From positions 1-40,920 of the IMG/VR virus record IMGVR_UViG_3300021086_000010: a stretch of 40,920 nt of DNA; one strand, given 5' to 3'. Every line of letters begins with the position of its first letter. Within the stretch, counting starts at the first letter, position 1. This DNA is from a virus. Lineage: Duplodnaviria; Caudoviricetes. The notes under the pieces were generated by a model that was not told where the DNA came from, did no database searches, and worked only from the letters and a program-made list of their open reading frames with translations. The position numbers were made by a program, and so were the translations under genes. Positions 3,044 to 40,806 of this stretch are shown here, one piece after another.

Positions 3044-3331
3044 CTACTCCTTCCGGAGAGGATCCCCATCAGCATTCTGACGCAATGCGTCTCGGAGTTG
3101 TAGAGCCTGTTGGAGAGCGGAGATCACTTCGGGAAGGTCTTGGTCACGGACCCGAGCGCCCTGCTTGGTAGGCCGGAAGGTACCGTGGACCTTCTGGTAG
3201 ACGCGGAGGTGGGTACCCCACCGACCACGGAAGGAGTTACGGACTACTCGGAGCTCACTGGCGCCGGCCGCTCCCTCAACGATGAGGAGAGGCCAGGAAC
3301 CGAGCACCAAGTCGGAAGAATCTTCCTCCAT
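3044..3331 (-). CDS. PC4/YdbC-like ssDNA-binding protein
   Basis: ELRVVRNSFRG...HLRVYQ...FRPTKQGARV...L.E.I.AL matches the PC4 family pattern (F.G...DIR.Y.....PTKKGI); GAGGAGG RBS. Confidence 0.8.
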   Translation of the reverse strand: MEEDSSDLVLGSWPLLIVEGAAGASELRVVRNSFRGRWGTHLRVYQKVHGTFRPTKQGARVRDQDLPEVISALQQALQLRDALRQNADGDPLRKE

Positions 3332-3478
3332 GGGGTACCTCCTCGGGGAGGCGTAGCTCCCCGTGTACTACTCAGGGCTCCCGCCCTGTTTCTTCCCCCT
3401 GTTGGGGGAAGATTGAAACCCCCTTACTGGGGGCTCCGTCAATACCGTATTCTACGTACTTAGGCTACGCCAATGAAT

Positions 3479-3796
3479 TCACGGTGTTTTAACCTCATTT
3501 TTCTTCTCTGGGAGGAAGAGACGTTGGAAGCCAACGTCCGGGGAGTAGCGAAAGCAGGGGATCCCGTGAGCAGCGAGAGCCTTCATGCAGCGGGTCTGAG
3601 TGGAGCGCAGATTGAACGCTTGGTAGGGTTTCACCTCCACGCAGATGAGTCGCTCATCCTTGAAGGCCATGAAATCTGGCCATCCCCGCTTGGAGGGAGT
3701 AAACCCTTTTGCGAGCAACGCATCCCAGCATCTAGCTTCTGCAGGATTAGCTGGACAACGGAATGCGGGAACCCTGACTGCCTTATGGTTGGCCAT
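3479..3796 (-). CDS. VRR-NUC-like PD-(D/E)XK nuclease
   Basis: RGWPDF...ICVEVK....LRSTQ motif. Confidence 0.75.
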   Translation of the reverse strand: MANHKAVRVPAFRCPANPAEARCWDALLAKGFTPSKRGWPDFMAFKDERLICVEVKPYQAFNLRSTQTRCMKALAAHGIPCFRYSPDVGFQRLFLPEKKNEVKTP

Positions 3797-4213
3797 TTAG
3801 ACTCCCGAAGGTGATCTGGCCTGCCGTTCCTGGTCAGCCGACACTTCTTTGGCAGTCTCCTGGCTGCGTCCCTGGTCACTCCGAACCGTTCCACGATCTG
3901 CCACACCTCCAGCGGGTCCTTGCGCAGCACTTGCATCACCCTCCGGAAGACCCTCTCCAACTCCTTTCGCCAGGCACTGATCAGGTACTCTTCTCCGTCC
4001 GTAGATATGCCAGTATTGACGCTCTCTTAGACACTTCACCGATCCGCAGAGGATCGGTATCCGGCCTTTGTGCTCCTGCGACCAGATCGCCTGGCACCCC
4101 CAGCAGACGGTCACTAACAAGCCCAGCTTACGTTCAGCCGCGATCCAGGCGTTGAGATAGAAATGGCTCAGGCCGGATGGAGCAAAAGTGCGCTTTGCCC
4201 AAGGAGAAGGCAT
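3797..4213 (-). CDS. Hypothetical protein with CxxC/CxxxxC (frame of the 3' half uncertain)
   Basis: TGATG coupling at 4213 and TAAATG coupling at 3797/3796; CWGC and CGSVKC. Confidence 0.55.
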   Translation of the reverse strand: MPSPWAKRTFAPSGLSHFYLNAWIAAERKLGLLVTVCWGCQAIWSQEHKGRIPILCGSVKCLRERQYWHIYGRRRVPDQCLAKGVGEGLPEGDASAAQGPAGGVADRGTVRSDQGRSQETAKEVSADQERQARSPSGV

Positions 4214-4485
4214 CAGGATGGATCCTCCTCTTCGATTCGGACGATTCCGTCCGGACCATGCTCCAGCGCATGCTGGAGTTCCTGGGCGGCCGCCGCCGCC
4301 AGGCGGATCAGCCCCAGGGTGCATGTCTGGCAGAGATCCATTACGAATCCGCTCATCTGCGCAGCTAGGCAGATCGTCTCTCCACGGAGTACTTCAGCGC
4401 ACTGAATCACCCGCTGCCGGTCATGCAGATCCTTGGTCAGCTGGGGGATCGATCCAGGATCCCGAGAGACTACTTTTCGCTTCAT
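4213..4485 (-). CDS. Hypothetical protein
   Basis: GGAGG RBS before ATG 4485; stop overlaps the next start. Confidence 0.65.
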   Translation of the reverse strand: MKRKVVSRDPGSIPQLTKDLHDRQRVIQCAEVLRGETICLAAQMSGFVMDLCQTCTLGLIRLAAAAAQELQHALEHGPDGIVRIEEEDPS

Positions 4486-4656
4486 TGGCCCCTCCCATGC
4501 ATCATGTGGATAACTTTACCGCGTTCAGCCCAGAATTATACTCTGCGCTAAGCCCTGCGTCAATTCGCCACGTAGGGTATATTGAATACCGGAAGCAGTG
4601 GGAGCGGAAAATACACCCCCTGCATTAAAGGTAGAGGCTTTCGCGGAGGTGTAATT

Positions 4657-4960: not shown

Positions 4961-5668
4961 TTGATCCCAGCCCTGATCGCCGTGAGACATGGCGCCACGG
5001 CTTGGAACTCGGAGACCCTGGGCCAGGACGAACGTCTCCGGGGGTGGACGGATCTGCCGCTCACTCCCCGGGGAATGGCCGAAGGAAAGGCGCTAGCAGC
5101 CCATCTCTCTCCCTTGCCCATCAGAGACGTATATACCTCCGACCTGAAACGAGCTACCGCAGTAGCCTTAAGCGTCGCCCAGCAGAATGTCGGCCGTCCG
5201 GCGGTCAGCATGGCTATGGCCCTCCGTCCCTGGAACGTCGGCCAGTGGGCTGGACAGCCGGTTAGACGTGTCTTGAAAACCATGCTCCAGTATCAAGGTG
5301 CTCTCCAAGATCGCCCTCCACCCGGCGGAGAGCCCTTCCGGGCTTTCCTCCAGCGTTTCCTTCACTTTGTCGGTCCCCGCTTCCAGCAGGCCATCGACCG
5401 GGGTCCGATTGCCCTGGTCTCCCATACCAGGAATCTCCGGGTGTTGGACGCCTGGATGAAAAAGGGCGGTCAGGGGACGGAGTTGGATAGCAAAATCATG
5501 CTGGATCGGGAGCACGTGGGGACCGGCTCGGGCTTGATGTGGCTGCACGACGGTAAAGCCTGGCAACGGCATGAATTGGGAAACACTTCTCGCAACGGCG
5601 CCGTCGGAGCAGAGAAGCAATACGATACTAGCAAAATGTCTCGGCAGTTGAGAGGAGCCGGCGGATGA
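4961..5668 (+). CDS. Histidine phosphatase (phosphoglycerate mutase family)
   Basis: VRHGAT.WN, RGWTDLPLTPRG, YTSDLKRA, PPGGE and LVSH motifs. Confidence 0.92.
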   Translation: MIPALIAVRHGATAWNSETLGQDERLRGWTDLPLTPRGMAEGKALAAHLSPLPIRDVYTSDLKRATAVALSVAQQNVGRPAVSMAMALRPWNVGQWAGQPVRRVLKTMLQYQGALQDRPPPGGEPFRAFLQRFLHFVGPRFQQAIDRGPIALVSHTRNLRVLDAWMKKGGQGTELDSKIMLDREHVGTGSGLMWLHDGKAWQRHELGNTSRNGAVGAEKQYDTSKMSRQLRGAGG

Positions 5669-6378
5669 AAGCAGAAATCGTCTCCTACGATGCCGGCAAG
5701 AATAACTCGGATCTGGAGCTTGCCCGGGGACGCATTCTCCGGGGTGGAAGTTGGAAGCAGCAGCGAGTCGTGGTGCTTATCCCCAGCGCTGCAATGATCT
5801 CGGCCAAGGTTGCCCTCAGTCACTGGAACGTCATGTTTCCTCCAAACCAAGCCGTTCATCGGATGCTGGCCCTGGGGCTGGAGGTGGGCGAGGCCTACAG
5901 TCAGTGTATCGAGATGATCCTCTCCCATCCGCAACTCTCCGGGTGGGAATACATCTTGACCATGGAACACGATAATATCCCTCCGCCGGATGGTCTCTTA
6001 CGACTGCTCGCTGATATGGAGACGCATCCGGAATTTTCCTGTATCGGCGGCATATATTTTACCAAGGGACCGGAGGGGGTCCCGCAACTCTGGGGCGACC
6101 CCACTGATCCGCAATTTAATTGCAGGCCTCAACCGCCCCGCCCCGGGATAAATGAAACATGCGGAGTCGGGATGGGCTTCAATCTCTGGCGCCTGTCCAT
6201 GTTCAAGGATAAGGCTCTTCGGCGGCCGTGGTTCAAAACGATAGCCTCAACCACCGAGGGAGTGGGTACTCAGGATCTTTATTTCTGGAGCGATGCGCGG
6301 ACCCATGGATATCGCTGTGCGGTTGATTGCGATGTTCGGGTGGGCCACCACGACCACGTAAACGACGTGACTTGGTGA
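5665..6378 (+). CDS. Glycosyltransferase, GT-A fold (GT2-like)
   Basis: YILTMEHDNIPPPD (DxD-like), GVGMGFNL, TQDLYFW, VDCDVRVGH; ATGA coupling. Confidence 0.8.
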   Translation: MKAEIVSYDAGKNNSDLELARGRILRGGSWKQQRVVVLIPSAAMISAKVALSHWNVMFPPNQAVHRMLALGLEVGEAYSQCIEMILSHPQLSGWEYILTMEHDNIPPPDGLLRLLADMETHPEFSCIGGIYFTKGPEGVPQLWGDPTDPQFNCRPQPPRPGINETCGVGMGFNLWRLSMFKDKALRRPWFKTIASTTEGVGTQDLYFWSDARTHGYRCAVDCDVRVGHHDHVNDVTW

Positions 6379-6384
6379 GATAAT

Positions 6385-7161
6385 ATGGCTCTATACGGAG
6401 CACGGGCTGTTGATTTTCCAGATACTTTCAAATCCGCTGCGCTCTCTCGGTTTGAGCCTTACCCATTTCTCACTACTGCGACTGCTTTCTCCTCGCATGC
6501 ACCAGCCACCTTCTTTTTCCATCCAGTGCTTCTGGCGGCTCCGGTTCAGATTGCCAATATCAACTTCTTCAAGTCGCTTAGCGTCTCGGCTCCCCAAGCC
6601 ACGTCTGCAGCTTCTACCGGCTCCGAGGGCTATTCTTACTCGCACGGGTTCACCCTCTTCACCAGACAGGATTCTTCAGCGAACTCTACTAATCTCTCCC
6701 AGATTAATACCGCCTCGGTGGGCCTTTCGGTCACGGTCGGGTATAGCTCTACCTCGCAAGTAATGGGGATGAGCTGGGTAACTGATACCACCGGAGGGAT
6801 TTCCAGCCTTTCCACTACCTCTAACGCGGCCAACTGGTCCAACTCTCTCTCTGGCCTCTTCCGGGTAGCTATCCCATTCCAGGCGGTACTCTCGGCTGGA
6901 GAGTACTTCTTTGCTCATGCTCACTCCTCGACTGCGGCGACCTCCAATAGCGCGGTTACCCTATTGTCTATCTCCAACCTGCATGTAGCCCCGCAGCTAA
7001 CCACCTTCATCAATCTGGGCGGGAGCGCTTCGGTTACCTCTGCTCAGATCGGGATCGGCCTAGGAGTAGCCTCGGCATTGACCACCAACGCCTCCATGGC
7101 TGGATCGGTCATCTCCGGCGGTACCGTCAATTTCTGGGTGCAGGAGATGTCGGCTCTGTAG
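6385..7161 (+). CDS. Ser/Thr/Ala-rich beta protein, probably virion-associated
   Basis: 258 aa, very S/T-rich with few charges; LSAGEYFFAH beta-sandwich-like segment. Confidence 0.65.
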   Translation: MALYGARAVDFPDTFKSAALSRFEPYPFLTTATAFSSHAPATFFFHPVLLAAPVQIANINFFKSLSVSAPQATSAASTGSEGYSYSHGFTLFTRQDSSANSTNLSQINTASVGLSVTVGYSSTSQVMGMSWVTDTTGGISSLSTTSNAANWSNSLSGLFRVAIPFQAVLSAGEYFFAHAHSSTAATSNSAVTLLSISNLHVAPQLTTFINLGGSASVTSAQIGIGLGVASALTTNASMAGSVISGGTVNFWVQEMSAL

Positions 7162-7168
7162 GGGATAA

Positions 7169-7558
7169 ATGATAACCCGGATCCCTCGTCTTGGCCGCTG
7201 TCCGCGCTGTGGTGCGCAGCTTATGCGCGATCGGAATGGTTATCGATGTCAGTCTGACGGCGACTACTTTCCGGGAGCCGTGAGCATTAATCCGGTGGCC
7301 GCTATTATCGTGCAGGCCTGTCGCGATCTGTCGCAATCGGACGCCGAATGGTTGGTCACGCGGGAATTGGAAGTTGTTTCCGTTTCTGCTCCTAACCCGG
7401 GAACGGCGCTGACGACAGCCGAAGCGCGGGCGATATGTGCTCTGGCTTGGGGCCATGGTGGACGAAAAGACGATCAAGATAGCGCTTTAGTGAAGCTTCG
7501 CCAACTTGCTGAGTCTGATGGGGTAAAATGGGAACGTGGTCTTTGGCTGCACTCGTGA
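7169..7558 (+). CDS. Hypothetical protein with N-terminal Zn ribbon
   Basis: CPRCG..L......YRC; lies in the operon. Confidence 0.65.
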   Translation: MITRIPRLGRCPRCGAQLMRDRNGYRCQSDGDYFPGAVSINPVAAIIVQACRDLSQSDAEWLVTRELEVVSVSAPNPGTALTTAEARAICALAWGHGGRKDDQDSALVKLRQLAESDGVKWERGLWLHS

Positions 7559-7691
7559 GTTTCGAGCATGAGGTTAATGGCATGAAGACCACGATCAGGG
7601 AAATCCATGTCCATCTCTGAACTAGAACTGGAAGTAGAACGCTACCGGAGGATGTTGCTGGATTCTCATTACGCGAAGAAGGAGATCCAAA

Positions 7692-7943
7692 ATGGAGAAT
7701 GGAGCACCCACTCCGATCAAGATGGCCACCGACCAGGCGGTGGTGGTGTTCTACTACGACCTGGCCATCCATCTCCTCTCGGGGATGCAGAATCAACTCC
7801 GGCTGTTCAAGCAAGACAGCCCAGCCAACCAGTTCCAGCGGGTAATGGAACTGCTGGCGGAGAAGCGCAACGGGTTCCTCAAGGAAACCCAGAATCGGAT
7901 ACAGATCGTTCAGGCGGCCCAGGCGCCACTTCGGTCCAACTAG
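7692..7943 (+). CDS. Hypothetical helical protein (83 aa)
   Basis: AAGGAG RBS before ATG 7692; more protein-like than the overlapping low-complexity frame. Confidence 0.7.
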   Translation: MENGAPTPIKMATDQAVVVFYYDLAIHLLSGMQNQLRLFKQDSPANQFQRVMELLAEKRNGFLKETQNRIQIVQAAQAPLRSN

Positions 7944-7966
7944 CCCCTTTCGTTCTGCAGCCTCCG

Positions 7967-8482
7967 TTGAAATTGGACTTGGGCTGCGGCAAGAATAAAA
8001 AGGAGAGCTTCCTCGGGGTAGACTGTCTCGACTTTCCCGGAGTAGACTATAAAGTCGATCTGGGGTCTGAGCGCTGGCCTTGGGAAGACTCCTCGGTTGA
8101 TGAAGCCCACTGCTCTCATATGCTAGAGCATCTGGTTCCTAAAGAGCGGATTCACTTCGCTAACGAGCTATGGAGGGTGCTCAAGCCGGACGGGAAGGCG
8201 TTGATCGTGGTGCCTCATTGGGCTTCCTGCCGGGCTTATGGAGACCTGACCCACCAGTGGCCGCCAGTCTCCGAATTCTGGCCACCTTACCTGCAGAAGA
8301 AATGGCGGGAGGAAAATGCTCCACACAACTCCGGATATGAGTGCAACTTTGATTGTCTACAACCCGGCTATTCGATGCATCCGGAACTCTTATATCGAAA
8401 TGATCACTTCCGTACTTTAGCTCTACAGTTCGGCAAAGAAGCAGCGTTGGATATGATCTTTACGCTGGTCTGTAGGAAGTAG
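7967..8482 (+). CDS. Class I SAM-dependent methyltransferase (type 11-like); start uncertain (frame open from 7607)
   Basis: KLDLGCG motif I, WPWEDSSVD, SHMLEHL, ELWRVLKPDG, DLTH. Confidence 0.88.
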   Translation: MKLDLGCGKNKKESFLGVDCLDFPGVDYKVDLGSERWPWEDSSVDEAHCSHMLEHLVPKERIHFANELWRVLKPDGKALIVVPHWASCRAYGDLTHQWPPVSEFWPPYLQKKWREENAPHNSGYECNFDCLQPGYSMHPELLYRNDHFRTLALQFGKEAALDMIFTLVCRK

Positions 8483-29588: not shown

Positions 29589-30758
29589 TCACTCCTCATG
29601 CTCCTCTAATTCTTTGGCCTGAATCCGATGAACGTCTACCCTCTCATAGCGCCGCTCCGTGATCCCCCCCTTGCTCCGTAGAGCCCCCATGATTTCTCTC
29701 AAACCGGCGGCGATGGGTTTTCCACAGCTTTTTAACATTCTCCGAATTCCAGTCTGGGTAGCCTTCATTTCCACGGCGGAATCGGCGCCATCCCTCCCGT
29801 ACAATTCAGTCAAGAACTTGTGGGTCACTTCTCCGTCGAGGGCTTGGCGCTTAACGGTCATTGGCCCCAAGATCAAGCCATCGCCCAGGTCGATGGGGTT
29901 CTCCCGGGCAAAGCCATAGACGGCGTTCTTCACCCGGTTAGCGATCTCCAATACCTGAACGGTCCGCAAGTAAGCAGCCTTGGCCGTCTTCGGGGTAAGG
30001 AAGGTCATAATCTCCTTCTCCAGGGCCTGGCCATTCTGGCCCATCAGGACCGCCAGAGTACGCTGCTCCGGGCAGGCAGAGAAGGCCGGACAAAACTTAC
30101 AGTGGAGTCCGGTGGCAACAAGGGGGGAGCCACCTCCAGAAACCACTGCTACCGCCTTCTCCACCGCCCGAACGATGTCGGCGAGCTCCAAGGCAATGGC
30201 ATCCAGATGCCAGTTATCCAGAACGACCGATTCCGTGGTCACCCTGCCGGTCTCGCCGATCCGAATCACCTCTGCGATCGCCCGATCGGTCTCCATTATC
30301 CGAGCAGCGGCCAAAGCGTAGAAGCGGACCTGTAGGCAGTCGGCTACCGGGGGAACATGATGCCCCAAGCCTGTCTTCAAATCTCCCACGTAAGCATAAC
30401 GTACTCCATCGATAGTCCGAAGGCCCATGATATCCGGAGATCCGGCGATTTCGTCTGCTGCCAGTTGGCTGACCACCCGTCTGGCTAGTCCGGTTTTGAC
30501 GTTATAGGCGAGACCAGCTTCGTATTCGCCTTCGGGAATAGCTTCCAGATCAATCGAATCCAAGTATACACGATGCTCTTCCGGCGCCTTAAACGGCTCC
30601 TGCCGGGCGTTACGTAGAACATACGCATGAACGATATCTCCTCTCTCCGAGGCCGCCGTAACCCGCCGCGTCCAAGGCAAGGCATGGCTGGCCGGACAAT
30701 GCTTTACTCGATCCAAGTGAGACGCAGAGGGTAATACTCCTTTATCGCGTGGGACCAT
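29589..30758 (-). CDS. PD-(D/E)XK exonuclease (RecB/Cas4-like)
   Basis: PSAS....CP.S, G..VH, GSPD...DLKTG...Q...YA, HCKFCP....CP Fe-S motif; GGAGGGTA RBS before ATG 30758. Confidence 0.88.
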   Translation of the reverse strand: MVPRDKGVLPSASHLDRVKHCPASHALPWTRRVTAASERGDIVHAYVLRNARQEPFKAPEEHRVYLDSIDLEAIPEGEYEAGLAYNVKTGLARRVVSQLAADEIAGSPDIMGLRTIDGVRYAYVGDLKTGLGHHVPPVADCLQVRFYALAAARIMETDRAIAEVIRIGETGRVTTESVVLDNWHLDAIALELADIVRAVEKAVAVVSGGGSPLVATGLHCKFCPAFSACPEQRTLAVLMGQNGQALEKEIMTFLTPKTAKAAYLRTVQVLEIANRVKNAVYGFARENPIDLGDGLILGPMTVKRQALDGEVTHKFLTELYGRDGADSAVEMKATQTGIRRMLKSCGKPIAAGLREIMGALRSKGGITERRYERVDVHRIQAKELEEHEE

Positions 30759-30859
30759 CGTTACTACCCTCCTGCCTTCCAGGAAAACTCCCACCAAGCA
30801 CGGGCCGCGCCCGGTGGGCTACTTAGCCGGCCTGCTGCACTGTGCTTCGGCCCAGGGCC

Positions 30860-30893
30860 GCTGCTCCTGATAGGTCTGCGCAGCCTTGGCCCT
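30860..30893. repeat. 34-bp exact direct repeat of ERF coding sequence (other copy 32554-32587)
   Basis: gctgctcctgataggtctgcgcagccttggccct at both positions. Confidence 0.95.
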
Positions 30894-30964
30894 GGTCGCG
30901 GGAAGTGGAGTTGAACCACTAGGGCCTGGCTTATGAGGCCTGGCTGGAAACCGTTCCTCCCGCA
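30893..30964 (-). tRNA. tRNA-Met(CAT)-like, atypical cloverleaf with encoded CCA
   Basis: Acceptor TGCGGGA/TCCCGCG-A-CCA, T-arm AGTGG-TTCAACT-CCACT, anticodon loop CTCATAA, minimal D-arm GGAA-CGGT-TTCC. Confidence 0.8.
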
Positions 30965-31210
30965 AGATGACGCAAAGGGAAAGGGGTAAGGAATAAGCTC
31001 CGAAGGTGCCATAGGGTTGGAGAAAAGCCTTGCAGTCGCCGTTAATGACAGTCGCAAAACAGGCATACTCTCCTCGCTCCTACGGCCGGTTGGGAATATT
31101 TCACCCGGAGCCGGCTCACCGGCGTTGGTTACCCTTTCTCCCTCTGCGGGGACTTACCCGGTCTATCAACCCGGGCGAGCCCCAAACTGGTTTCAATTCC
31201 CATCTCTTCC
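30965..31210 (-). ncRNA. Candidate ~245-nt structured ncRNA
   Basis: Nested long-range helices: 31129-31147 with 30972-30989; 31102-31111 with 30997-31008; 31079-31085 with 31009-31015; 31068-31073 with 31019-31024. Confidence 0.65.
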
Positions 31211-31720
31211 CTATTCGAAGTAGCTCGCCTCCACATCAAGTTCGATTTCCTTTTGGTTGGCTCTGGCGATCGCCGAGCGGATCTCGGTAGCCCGCCGCAT
31301 CGCCGCGGTAGCCTCTTTGGCGATGTCAGCCGGCTTCATGGTCGGATGCGGCCACTCCTCGTCCTTTTTCCGGACGCCGGATGGCTCTCCACCCCACGTC
31401 CTTTGCCTCTCTCCGGCGCTCAGGGCGCCCTTCCACAAAGCCGTTTCCCGTTCGTAGACCCCCAAGGCCTTCACCCAGAAGCCTAAAGTCCGGCTCTCCG
31501 AGAGCGCCTCTGCCAATACCCGAGTATTGTATAATGACTGTAGGGCCTGCAAATGGGCAATAGAGAGCTCGGCCACCTGCAAGGCGGTAGCTTCCCGAGC
31601 AGGATTCTTCTGCTCGTCGGAGAAGGCCATCAGGGAATCCTTGAAGGTCTTCTCAGCCGCCTCCTTACGGACAGTCCAGATGGAAATCGCCTCGCGGATC
31701 TTGGTTCCCGTCAGTTTCAT
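31211..31720 (-). CDS. Long coiled-coil protein, DIP1984-like
   Basis: All-helical; LQ..Q..YN..V and EIRSAIARAN..EIEL patterns reminiscent of the DIP1984 family; GGAGG RBS. Confidence 0.6.
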   Translation of the reverse strand: MKLTGTKIREAISIWTVRKEAAEKTFKDSLMAFSDEQKNPAREATALQVAELSIAHLQALQSLYNTRVLAEALSESRTLGFWVKALGVYERETALWKGALSAGERQRTWGGEPSGVRKKDEEWPHPTMKPADIAKEATAAMRRATEIRSAIARANQKEIELDVEASYFE

Positions 31721-31731
31721 TTCATCCTCCC

Positions 31732-32085
31732 TTATGCGGCCGGATCCGATTCCGGCAAGCCAAGACTGAGCGCGATGGCCTTATCCATCACCGCCAGTAC
31801 CTCTTTTTTGGTGCGCCCAGGATCGTCATTCCATCCGGGTATATCATGGATGGTTCCGAACGGTAATGCCGCTCTGGCAACTATATTGCTAATTCGCACA
31901 TAGTCTAGCTTGGATTTGCTATCGTAGCCACCCAAAGCGACGTGTAATGCTCCGCCCACACAATAAGCCATACTGCCATCGGAGCATAATCGCCGTGCGG
32001 CACCTTGGCACCAGCCTTGTTCCAGCAGGGCGCGGGTATCGCAAAGCACCTTAATCGTAATGTCCACTTCGATCTGCTTGGTCAT
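31732..32085 (-). CDS. DUF6197-like phage protein
   Basis: GWCQG, YCVGGAL, WNDDPGRTKKEVLA..DKAI. Confidence 0.75.
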   Translation of the reverse strand: MTKQIEVDITIKVLCDTRALLEQGWCQGAARRLCSDGSMAYCVGGALHVALGGYDSKSKLDYVRISNIVARAALPFGTIHDIPGWNDDPGRTKKEVLAVMDKAIALSLGLPESDPAA

Positions 32086-32088
32086 AAA

Positions 32089-32451
32089 CTATGCCTCCGG
32101 AGTGCTGCCAGATGCGTAAGTAGAATTCGTGTAATTCACCGCCTGGCTCCAAGCCCACTTATCCAACACCAAGTGGATATAATCTGCCTCGGACAACTCG
32201 ATGTTCTCCTCGATGTTGGCCTTCACCATCTCAATGGCCCGATCATATTCCTCGGTCTTGTCTTGTGGGATGGCAATGAGAAAAGAGGTCTCGGGCATCT
32301 TATTCTTCCGGATTAACTCAATGTTCTTTTCGAAGCGCCGGAGAGTTGTCTTATAGAAGCCATCTAGAGCTTTCTCAAAAAGCCCCCGATGGGCAGTGCG
32401 ATTAGTGGCCAGCCTGTCCAGCAGCCATCCCTTCTTAACGGTCGCATTCAT
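32089..32451 (-). CDS. Conserved helical phage hypothetical protein
   Basis: LL..L..NR..H...F..A..G, P.D.T.EYDRAIEM, IELS...Y...VLD.W.W; GGAG RBS. Confidence 0.8.
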   Translation of the reverse strand: MNATVKKGWLLDRLATNRTAHRGLFEKALDGFYKTTLRRFEKNIELIRKNKMPETSFLIAIPQDKTEEYDRAIEMVKANIEENIELSEADYIHLVLDKWAWSQAVNYTNSTYASGSTPEA

Positions 32452-32452
32452 C

Positions 32453-33241
32453 TTATTCTCTCTTCTCCTGGACCTTGCGGCGCAGCTGCTCCGCCTCGGT
32501 CATCGTCAGCTGCTGTTTGCCGACTGCCAGATATAATTCCCTAGTTAGTTTCAGCTGCTCCTGATAGGTCTGCGCAGCCTTGGCCCTTTCTAGGAAACCG
32601 ATCTGATCAAACCTTCCCGGCGGAGGCACCGGAGGGAGGGAGGAGGGTACGGAACCCTCACCTCCATCCCCCGCCGAGAAGTCAAGAGGAGGCTGGCCGG
32701 ATTCACGAGGTACCTCGCTTCCGGCCGTACTCACTACCGAGTCCCGGGTACGTCCCCAAGGAATCTCGCTAGCGCTGGTCCGCGCGCCAGCCGCAGCCTC
32801 CAACTTGCTATTGCCATTCCGGCGGCGGAACGAAGCCGCTTCACCGTCGTCATCTTCGTCCGAGACAACTCCGACCATCGCTCCCAGCGCATAGCGGCGA
32901 CCGTAGGTGATGGCACTGCCGATGGCCTGGGGAGTGATCTCTGCTGCAGTGAGGGTCAAGCCCTCCTCGATCCACTGCCCACTGGCATGAGCGAGCAAAG
33001 TGAAAATGGTTACCCGATTGCCCTCGGCGATCACCGTCTGCACGATCGCCAGACCATTGTCGGAGAGGGGCACCCGGCAAACCTCCCAGACATCGGCCAA
33101 GGTAGAATAGTGGTACTGATAGGTCTTGCCGGTTCGCTGGGAAGCCACGTTGGCCACACTGGCCTTGGGAGCTACCTTGATCTTGGCCTGGGCCTTGGCC
33201 AAGGCGGCAGCGAGCTCGTTGATCTGCTCTGATCGGTTCAC
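32453..33241 (-). CDS. erf: ERF-family ssDNA annealing protein
   Basis: SEQINELAAALAKAQ, Y.Y.TL, LAHASGQWI, Q.IGSAITYGRRYAL..MVGV..DEDDDG. Confidence 0.93.
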   Translation of the reverse strand: MNRSEQINELAAALAKAQAKIKVAPKASVANVASQRTGKTYQYHYSTLADVWEVCRVPLSDNGLAIVQTVIAEGNRVTIFTLLAHASGQWIEEGLTLTAAEITPQAIGSAITYGRRYALGAMVGVVSDEDDDGEAASFRRRNGNSKLEAAAGARTSASEIPWGRTRDSVVSTAGSEVPRESGQPPLDFSAGDGGEGSVPSSLPPVPPPGRFDQIGFLERAKAAQTYQEQLKLTRELYLAVGKQQLTMTEAEQLRRKVQEKRE

Positions 33242-33431: not shown

Positions 33432-33656
33432 ATGATCTGGCTGATGGTGGCGTCCCTCTGGCTAGCTTTTGCATTGACTCTAATCCACTTCTGGTCAGCT
33501 ATGTTGACCTGGAAGCGGCGCTACCTGCGACTCCGAGCCACCTGCCGGATCTTCCTCCACGAGATGGAAAAGCATCCAGGCAGATCATGGGAATCAGAGC
33601 GCTGGGATGAGTTTGATCAAGCCATCAAAGACTCTGGTCCGCGCTCTCTTAACTGA
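33432..33656 (+). CDS. Membrane-anchored hypothetical protein
   Basis: GAGG RBS; N-terminal TM segment. Confidence 0.65.
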   Translation: MIWLMVASLWLAFALTLIHFWSAMLTWKRRYLRLRATCRIFLHEMEKHPGRSWESERWDEFDQAIKDSGPRSLN

Positions 33657-33669
33657 CAAGGAGAAGAAC

Positions 33670-40549: not shown

Positions 40550-40732
40550 TTATCTGTGCTCCACCCGGCCGTCTTGGTGGACCCGAATGGTGTGTCCGCA
40601 GCCGGTATCGAAGTCGCGGAATGACGATTTGCCCGTCTCGGCGTTTTCGGCCAGCTTGCGCTTCAGGCAATTCGCGTAGGCCAATTCCTCGGCATCGAGC
40701 TCGACCGGAACGATTGGCTTCTTGGTATCCAT
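40550..40732 (-). CDS. Hypothetical protein
   Basis: GGAGGGTAGCACCA-ATG at 40732. Confidence 0.7.
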   Translation of the reverse strand: MDTKKPIVPVELDAEELAYANCLKRKLAENAETGKSSFRDFDTGCGHTIRVHQDGRVEHR

Positions 40733-40738
40733 TGGTGC

Positions 40739-40806
40739 TACCCTCCTGCTGGAGCATGAGCGCTCCGGGATGCCCACGACTCACGTGGGACACCCGCAAC
40801 GTTCAG
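40739..40806 (-). repeat. 68-bp exact direct repeat, copy 2
   Basis: Identical to 1940-2007. Confidence 0.95.

Follow-up and report, generated by a model that had tools for sequence, protein, structure and literature searches.

An apparently undescribed pairing of a DIP1984-fold protein gene with a structured RNA in phages, and a divergent example in a 41-kb virus record

Results

The DNA analysed here (the window) is a whole virus record of 40,920 bases. Its terminase, portal and head genes are of the podovirus type, and its sequence was found in soil metagenome runs, two of which cover most of the window and one of which may be where it came from. On the minus strand, the gene order at the locus is as follows: an ERF annealing protein gene (32453-33241, identified by family search), a PHROG 34511 gene of unknown function (32089..32451, E 7.8e-16), a DUF6197 gene (31732..32085, PF19698 E 1.6e-17), the gene of a 169-aa protein (31211..31720), about 450 non-coding bases and the gene of a PD-(D/E)XK exonuclease. 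The non-coding bases hold a predicted structured RNA followed by a degenerate tRNA-like element.

A repeat search located two exact 34-bp copies of ERF-gene sequence on the minus strand, one within the 3' portion of that gene (32554..32587) and the other at 30860..30893, where it begins with the last A of the CCA of the tRNA-like element. The 1694-bp block between these direct repeats, with the latter copy as its right edge, holds three genes (PHROG 34511, DUF6197 and the 169-aa gene), the RNA and the tRNA-like element. Because exact 34-bp direct repeats bound it, the sequence suggests insertion of the whole block in one piece. No block-free related phage was found, nor any relative of the exonuclease, and neither the family gene nor its neighbours occurred in distant ERF loci (0/71). 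The DNA sequencing runs contained no variants, and run X2 was identical across the region. Promoter and terminator scans of the window stayed at chance level; the terminator-like hairpin behind the tRNA-like element (30790..30818, minus strand) is weak, two such hairpins being found against 2.7 expected in shuffles. This 41-kb phage has no tRNA cluster.

Some further elements were recorded elsewhere in the window. An exact 68-bp repeat lies at 1940-2007 and 40739-40806; on the minus strand it contains a hairpin and a GGAGG ribosome-binding site, and it is probably a reused leader or promoter element. A related 21 nt occurs at 30755-30775 and at 40729-40749. Short tandem repeats with 12- and 18-base spacing run across the contig ends (3-69 and 40788-40920), and the record is probably circular. 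In positions 4961-8482, upstream of the terminase gene, inspection by eye picked out one ORF that is histidine-phosphatase-like by its RHG motif (PHROG 12933) and one that resembles a methyltransferase; the same stretch contains a glycosyltransferase-like gene.

The 169-aa open reading frame (31211-31720, minus strand) is present just as an earlier note on this DNA had placed it. That note also called the product DIP1984-like, which holds for the predicted fold and is not borne out by sequence searches: Pfam, NCBIfam and PDB sequence searches with the protein returned no match, PF20935 included. Its AlphaFold model (pLDDT 94.5) is helical and has one clear match among solved structures, 3kdq from Corynebacterium diphtheriae, which we take to be DIP1984 although the PDB title gives no gene name. 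With the predicted model, Foldseek gave TM scores of 0.66/0.72 at probability 1.0 and E 0.003; a Z-score of 12.8 was obtained with an rmsd of 4.1 over 149 residues, the next match having Z 8.7. No nuclease or Ro60 fold was among the structure matches listed. The predicted fold is thus shared with DIP1984/DUF6847 (PF20935) over 149 residues, whereas sequence identity is 18%, the profile score falls below the cut-off and most of the clade is viral. Profile comparison against a true DUF6847 member gave a match that was co-linear and weak (E 0.025), PF20935 matched only one of 142 clade members (E 0.003), and the nearest Atlas clusters are viral, some of them with 14-16% DUF6847 members. By its model the window protein shares the DIP1984 fold, yet it is not a member by profile, and we treat it as part of a distant clade with this fold.

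A full HMMER scan yielded 447 relatives at E<=0.001 (clusters at 50% identity), the best of which is 41% identical to the window protein; nearly all are 160-180 aa long. In an alignment of 142 members N65 never varies, and G5, F26, F33, P40, Q61, L79, K84, G87, R91, W96, R117 and N155 are conserved in at least 90%; the window protein retains all of these residues. It sits on a long branch of the tree with P0003 as its sister. The clade is represented in one of 301 bacterial genomes of one class. With a median pI of 8.5 in the clade and 7.9 for the window protein, these proteins are not strongly basic. Word-based protein search, tblastn against cultured phages and blastn found no relatives of the protein or the RNA. 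Likewise, scans of viral contigs with the protein alone, a clade-specific pattern or the tRNA-like motif brought up no loci of the closest clade, the pattern scan giving only two contigs already in the set.

Directly behind the stop codon, the earlier note had drawn an RNA of about 245 nt, shaped as a rod and reaching to the first base of a tRNA. A folded region is indeed present at 30965-31210 (-103.1 kcal/mol, z -3.68; 0/200 shuffles as good). Its proposed boundary did not survive the comparison with relatives, in which the stretch from stop to core is variable and the conserved unit corresponds to a predicted 178-nt core (30971-31148, minus strand, z -3.84). Nor is the core a plain rod. It is predicted as a closed three-helix junction, since the competing hairpin GCCGG-TGAG-CCGGC (p 0.94) outcompetes the proposed helix GCTCCG.GGTG/CACC..CGGAGC, which is not among the helices above p 0.15. 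Other helices were recovered with high pairing probability: CGCAGAGGGAGA/TTTCCCTTTGCG (p 0.97), GGGTAA/TTACCC (p 0.89), GCCGTAGG/CCTATGGC (p 0.99), GGAGAG/TTCTCC (p 0.92) and GCCT/AGGC (p 0.88).

An 18-bp helix of 12 + 6 base pairs (P1) closes the core; in it the purine-rich 5' strand (31129..31148) pairs with 30971-30989 (p 0.97 and 0.89 for its two parts). It is followed by P2, a 5-bp tetraloop hairpin (31110..31123, p 0.94), and P3, a long irregular hairpin (31008..31086, main segments p 0.88-0.99). The mostly single-stranded positions 30989..31007 carry three CU motifs 8 and 7 nt apart, which are candidate protein-binding boxes. All of these elements are on the minus strand, as is the 62-nt leader between stop codon and core (31149..31210, z -3.21). 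The leader hairpin of the earlier note reappears here within two predicted hairpins (31184-31199 and 31149-31183), with GGGGCT/AGTCCC at p 0.98 and GCCCGG/CCGGGT at p 0.94. The outer AGATG/CATCT helix is predicted too, as GAGATGG/TCATCTT (p 0.79), but it is short; the 5' end of the leader can pair with 30964-30970, the last pair taking in tRNA position 1, and the leader is not conserved in relatives. The idea that the RNA abuts tRNA position 1 applies to the 245-nt version only, and the core stops 6 nt short of it.

The window RNA had no Rfam match at the gathering threshold, and no tandem repeat was found at this locus. When the window was tiled, 3/228 tiles reached z <= -3.5 (20 shuffles per tile). 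The other 178-nt tiles folding like the core, 2161-2338, 3241-3418 and 33481-33658 (minus strand), have z -4.5, -4.4 and -3.7, from 20 shuffles each, and are candidate structured elements.

The tRNA of the earlier note turned out to be a 72-nt tRNA-like element (30893..30964, minus strand) that is degenerate and ARAGORN-negative. ARAGORN detected no tRNA in the window even at a relaxed score, and Rfam gave only tRNA-Sec for the element, with 22.4 bits against a cut-off of 47. Among 316 tRNAs of related loci its best match is Met-CAT. A 7-bp acceptor stem, a 7-nt CAU anticodon loop, a full T arm and the CCA are kept; the features of a canonical tRNA-Met that are missing are the 8/9 connector, a D loop of normal size (it has 4 nt) and a paired anticodon stem, which contains an A.A mismatch. 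The D arm is stacked straight onto the acceptor stem, and the cloverleaf is less stable than the minimum-energy fold by 1.3 kcal/mol. An acceptor stem of 7 bp is a determinant for RNase P (PMC4201824), and with the acceptor stem, T arm and 3' CCA present the element is, by sequence, a candidate RNase P substrate. It has probably lost decoding and retained what RNase P requires, and it would likely serve as a 3' processing signal.

For a comparison of gene surroundings, 89 loci were fetched from viral and metagenome contigs, with one from a Planctomycetota genome. Two subset alignments were used as queries because no part of the full alignment was sufficiently conserved to scan for loci, and the fetched loci are accordingly biased to the GGAGRxEKxW and TGYKLREA types, with ~24-39% identity to the window protein. 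After 21 loci had been dropped (duplicates, cut genes, less than 300 nt downstream) and then two further duplicates, 66 remained, a set that still contains near-duplicates.

A structured region followed the gene in 62/66 loci, detected either by a model match or by a long-range helix, and neither was seen in 4/66. In 54/66 loci the sequence just behind the stop could form a helix of 8 bp or more across 150-200 nt, compared with 14/96 other genes of the same loci and 33/134 shuffles. When spans of 120-290 nt were permitted, 50/59 helices still measured 159-191 nt; the median length of the family RNA is ~172 nt. The opposite strand (45/67) was uninformative as a control, pairing being mirrored there. 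A covariance model built from 18 RNAs matched 26/55 further loci at E<=1 (21 of them at E<0.05), and every match sat directly behind the gene on the same strand. In 42 distinct aligned RNAs, changes on both sides occurred in 11/12 pairs of P1 and in 5/5 of P2, and paired cells made up 80.5% versus 41-50% in slid controls, in an alignment that had been fitted to the structure. MAFFT on all cores aligned the middle poorly, and it is P1, P2 and the boxes alone that are established. In a bacterial chromosome (L090) with no tRNA nearby, the RNA also lies behind the gene (E 0.21), and in one contig (L071, 680-853 and 893-1062) two diverged tandem copies of the RNA follow a single gene. Rfam found only tRNA and tmRNA in 12 related loci.

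These figures bear on the simplest alternative, that the structure is a tRNA leader or spacer, or chance folding in GC-rich DNA, and has nothing to do with the protein. An 8-bp long-range helix arises in 25% of shuffles, and T4-like phages carry stable RNAs in tRNA clusters. Against this, no tRNA follows the RNA in 46/62 loci or in the L090 chromosome, and the RNA shows covariation and a fixed size. For the family this reading is largely refuted, and we regard it as most improbable. By sequence comparison, the gene and its RNA are shown to travel together, with a covarying end helix and a near-fixed size, and the family very probably makes a discrete RNA.

Conserved bases of the family comprise UU and GG around P2 and two CU-N5/6-CU boxes, one central and one adjoining the 3' strand of P1. 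The CU dinucleotide recurs at a lag of 7 nt (87 observed versus 36.1+-5.5 in shuffles; other lags flat), an excess that is weak in 13 closed domains outside the model-detected set (17 versus 11.9; 21/200 shuffles as high). What follows the RNA varies: a tRNA within 10 nt in 16/62 loci, a U-tract in 18, either of these in 31, and often a hairpin. RNase P release by a tRNA, inferred from sequence, would be one of several routes by which the RNA is ended, matching 16/62 relatives. The leader from stop to core is at most 20 nt in 33/54 loci, 21-50 nt in 18 and more than 50 nt in 3. No conserved -10 element or promoter motif was found upstream of the RNA in the family loci.

We also looked behind the genes of true DUF6847 members. 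A non-coding stretch follows such a gene in three plasmids and in five Planctomycetota genomes; R2, one of two RNA family models (R1 and R2) built here from relatives, gave no match on the five bacterial stretches tested. By eye, six loci (L093, L094, L097, L172, L173 and L174) share a bracket behind the DUF6847 gene, with GCGAG(C/U) close to the beginning of the stretch and (G/A)CUG(A/G) close to its end, and show compensatory changes in a 4-5-bp helix; they represent a second type of RNA in bacteria. In L095 and L096 an L097-type RNA follows a long hairpin. Folding is weak at the three plasmid DIP1984 loci (z -0.9 to -2.3). PF20935 is also above its cut-off in Deinococcus radiodurans. This laboratory species has published small-RNA data and is a model for Ro60-Y RNA.

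In C. diphtheriae itself, published transcriptome data (PMC5784534) describe DIP1984 as monocistronic, ending at 2033317, 410 nt before the start site of the next gene, and as well expressed (base mean ~2000). They place a transcript start at 2033300, 17 nt behind the DIP1984 stop, with the remark 'no ORF or ncRNA found', as one of 51 intergenic transcript starts (PMC5784534). Since primary 5' ends are enriched in that library, the start hints at a promoter more than at processing. This start is the sole experimental support for the RNA, and the gene is a distant relative of that in the window.

The transcript start is relevant to a second alternative, in which the RNA acts in cis as a 3' element of its mRNA: by binding the CU boxes of its own transcript, the protein would control the stability of that transcript or read-through into the downstream tRNAs, much as HutP or TRAP do at spaced triplets. 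Such an element would be expected where this RNA is found, always directly behind the gene on the same strand, mostly with a leader of 20 nt or less and with a tRNA, U-tract or hairpin next in line, and periodic CU motifs would suit it. A separate start behind DIP1984 does not fit, however, and neither does the second tandem copy in L071; the domain is closed and of fixed size, and no alternative terminator fold was seen. We consider this reading rather unlikely. Together with the occurrence in 62/66 loci and the covariation, the tandem copy and the separate start bear out the gene-linked structured RNA that the earlier note had proposed.

Less of that note's alternative interpretation, a type III toxin-antitoxin-like pair, could be kept. 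The systems of this type (ToxIN, CptIN, TenpIN) also consist of one small protein gene and one non-coding RNA locus, and they are defined by tandem antitoxin repeats upstream of the toxin gene, a terminator between the two and an endoribonuclease toxin (PMC5086642). The order here is reversed: a single RNA lies downstream, with no tandem repeats and no terminator-separated upstream array. No ToxN, CptN or TenpN family or fold was among the matches listed, and the match to 3kdq is not one to a nuclease. More generally, an RNA antitoxin might neutralise a protein that is toxic in another way, for example as a membrane-active helical oligomer; the module is self-contained, has two parts and is carried by phages and, as true DIP1984 genes, on 371 plasmid records, and some Acinetobacter members are labelled 'septicolysin'. 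This is a label only, and the 'septicolysin' papers are, as far as the accessible text goes, genome reports. With 3kdq as the only clear structural match and DIP1984 well expressed in C. diphtheriae, a toxin-antitoxin function appears quite improbable.

We then asked how well the window RNA fits the family. The best overlapping match of R1 is partial and has E 1.2, and R2 had no overlapping match at E<=5; other closed-domain subtypes with clear closure are likewise missed by R2. The traits that the window RNA has in common with the family are its position, its size, a purine/pyrimidine closing helix (purine fraction 0.83 in the first 12 nt of the P1 5' strand versus a family mean of 0.77), a 5-bp tetraloop hairpin at the family distance from the 5' end, and CU boxes adjoining the closing helix. 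A tRNA-like element 6 nt behind the core also fits the family layout. The UU and GG flanking P2, 93-95% conserved in the family, are absent. The CU stretch scores 10.0 with the matrix of the central family box, a value attained by 2.2% of shuffles, and is at chance level with that of the 3' box (34% of shuffles as good); its count of CU at lags 7 and 8, chosen after looking, is 5 versus 1.4 (p 0.006). We read the window RNA as a divergent subtype from these sequence traits, its homology not being supported by the model score.

The degenerate tRNA means that the cassette may be decaying, and a third alternative goes further in supposing that the family module is real and the window copy a relic, carried on a repeat-bounded block and giving no working particle. 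The long branch of the protein, the failure of both RNA models and the exact 34-bp repeats around the block agree with it. Against it stand an intact ORF with all invariant residues, a core that retains its 18-bp closing helix and a z of -3.84, the absence of differences over the region in run X2, and the clear closed-domain subtypes that R2 also misses. On this evidence a relic is unlikely, and we think it fairly probable that the RNA is still made in this phage.

Finally, we surveyed the neighbours of the family gene. A tRNA or tmRNA was found in the fetched flank of 47/66 loci (relaxed ARAGORN score). Among 148 neighbouring ORFs scanned, of 201 chosen and with no background control, we found translation genes (L7/L12, EF-Ts, CysRS, Pth2, a release factor), RNA-repair genes (RtcB, in 1 locus only, a Ro60 domain, kinase-like AAA_33 and two metallo-beta-lactamase folds), and also NAD-related genes, Tad4 and HNH nucleases. 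There was no fixed partner gene among them; the one constant element beside the family gene is the RNA. In one contig (L016) the RtcB gene (3332-4600) comes immediately after the RNA, and a tmRNA immediately precedes the family gene. In another (L009) a gene with a Ro60 vWA domain (55-1017) lies ~1.5 kb upstream of the family gene, and ORFs related to it occur at the start of L018 and L035.

Discussion

The protein gene and its RNA apparently form a real and undescribed pair, of which the window holds a divergent example and whose function we infer. In the accessible parts of the literature on DIP1984/DUF6847, no function or RNA partner was found; the candidate-RNA supplements of PMC10690425 and bioRxiv 10.64898/2026.10.21.760802 could hold the motif.

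Two known arrangements invite comparison. HutP and TRAP oligomers read spaced triplets on 5' leaders and operate terminator/antiterminator switches. The pair described here resembles them in its short motifs of fixed period in single-stranded RNA (CU at a lag of 7), and differs in that the element is 3' of the gene and the fold unrelated. The other is Ro60-Y RNA, in which a non-coding RNA likewise lies next to a protein gene and the paired ends of the RNA form the protein-binding stem; this system occurs in bacteria and phages and is tied to tRNA-processing enzymes (PMC4201824). Ro60, however, is a ring-shaped protein of another family, and the window protein has no Ro60 family match. Y RNAs have 80-130 nt and an internal tRNA-like domain, whereas the RNA here has ~175 nt and the tRNA lies outside it. 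No Ro60 gene was seen among the scanned ORFs of the window.

Our preferred reading is a processed RNA bound by its own protein. The gene and RNA would be co-transcribed, and a closed RNA of ~180 bases would then be excised from the transcript. Its 3' end would be set by an RNase P cut at the following tRNA, or elsewhere by a U-tract or terminator. Its 5' end would arise by trimming up to the closing helix, because the upstream sequences share no promoter motif. The single-stranded CU boxes would be read by the helical protein as an oligomer, with Asn, Gln, Trp, Lys and Arg residues that are invariant making the contacts. In the weakest step, the particle would act as a nuclease-resistant decoy or scaffold in a response of tRNA supply and RNA repair, much as Ro60-Y RNA. 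The balance favours binding of the RNA by the protein. A role in translation rescue or counter-defence is a tentative assignment, and it is the gene neighbourhood that suggests it. The whole, a processed RNA bound by its own protein with translation rescue or counter-defence as its suggested role, has in our estimate about an even chance of being right.

A wider conjecture, more apt to fail than to hold, is that proteins of the DIP1984 fold supply one half of a widespread and undescribed class of small ribonucleoproteins in phages and bacteria. Each clade would have its own closed RNA of 170-185 nt, which presents motifs with a seven-base period to the protein oligomer. In the tRNA islands of phages the particle would shield translation from RNA-cutting defences of the host, and the phage studied here would keep its crippled tRNA solely as a cutting signal for RNase P.

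Few classes of bacterial or phage ribonucleoproteins are known. If the pairing is true, it would provide a ligand for the fold of 3kdq, which is solved yet unexplained. It is spread over hundreds of phage lineages, this clade alone forming 447 clusters at 50% identity, and over many plasmids (371 records), some plasmid-borne members bearing an unsupported toxin label. Because protein and RNA are both small and candidate boxes for binding have been located, binding, processing and phenotype are directly testable. What the window contributes is a divergent subtype of the RNA, together with a degenerate tRNA that may survive as a processing signal.
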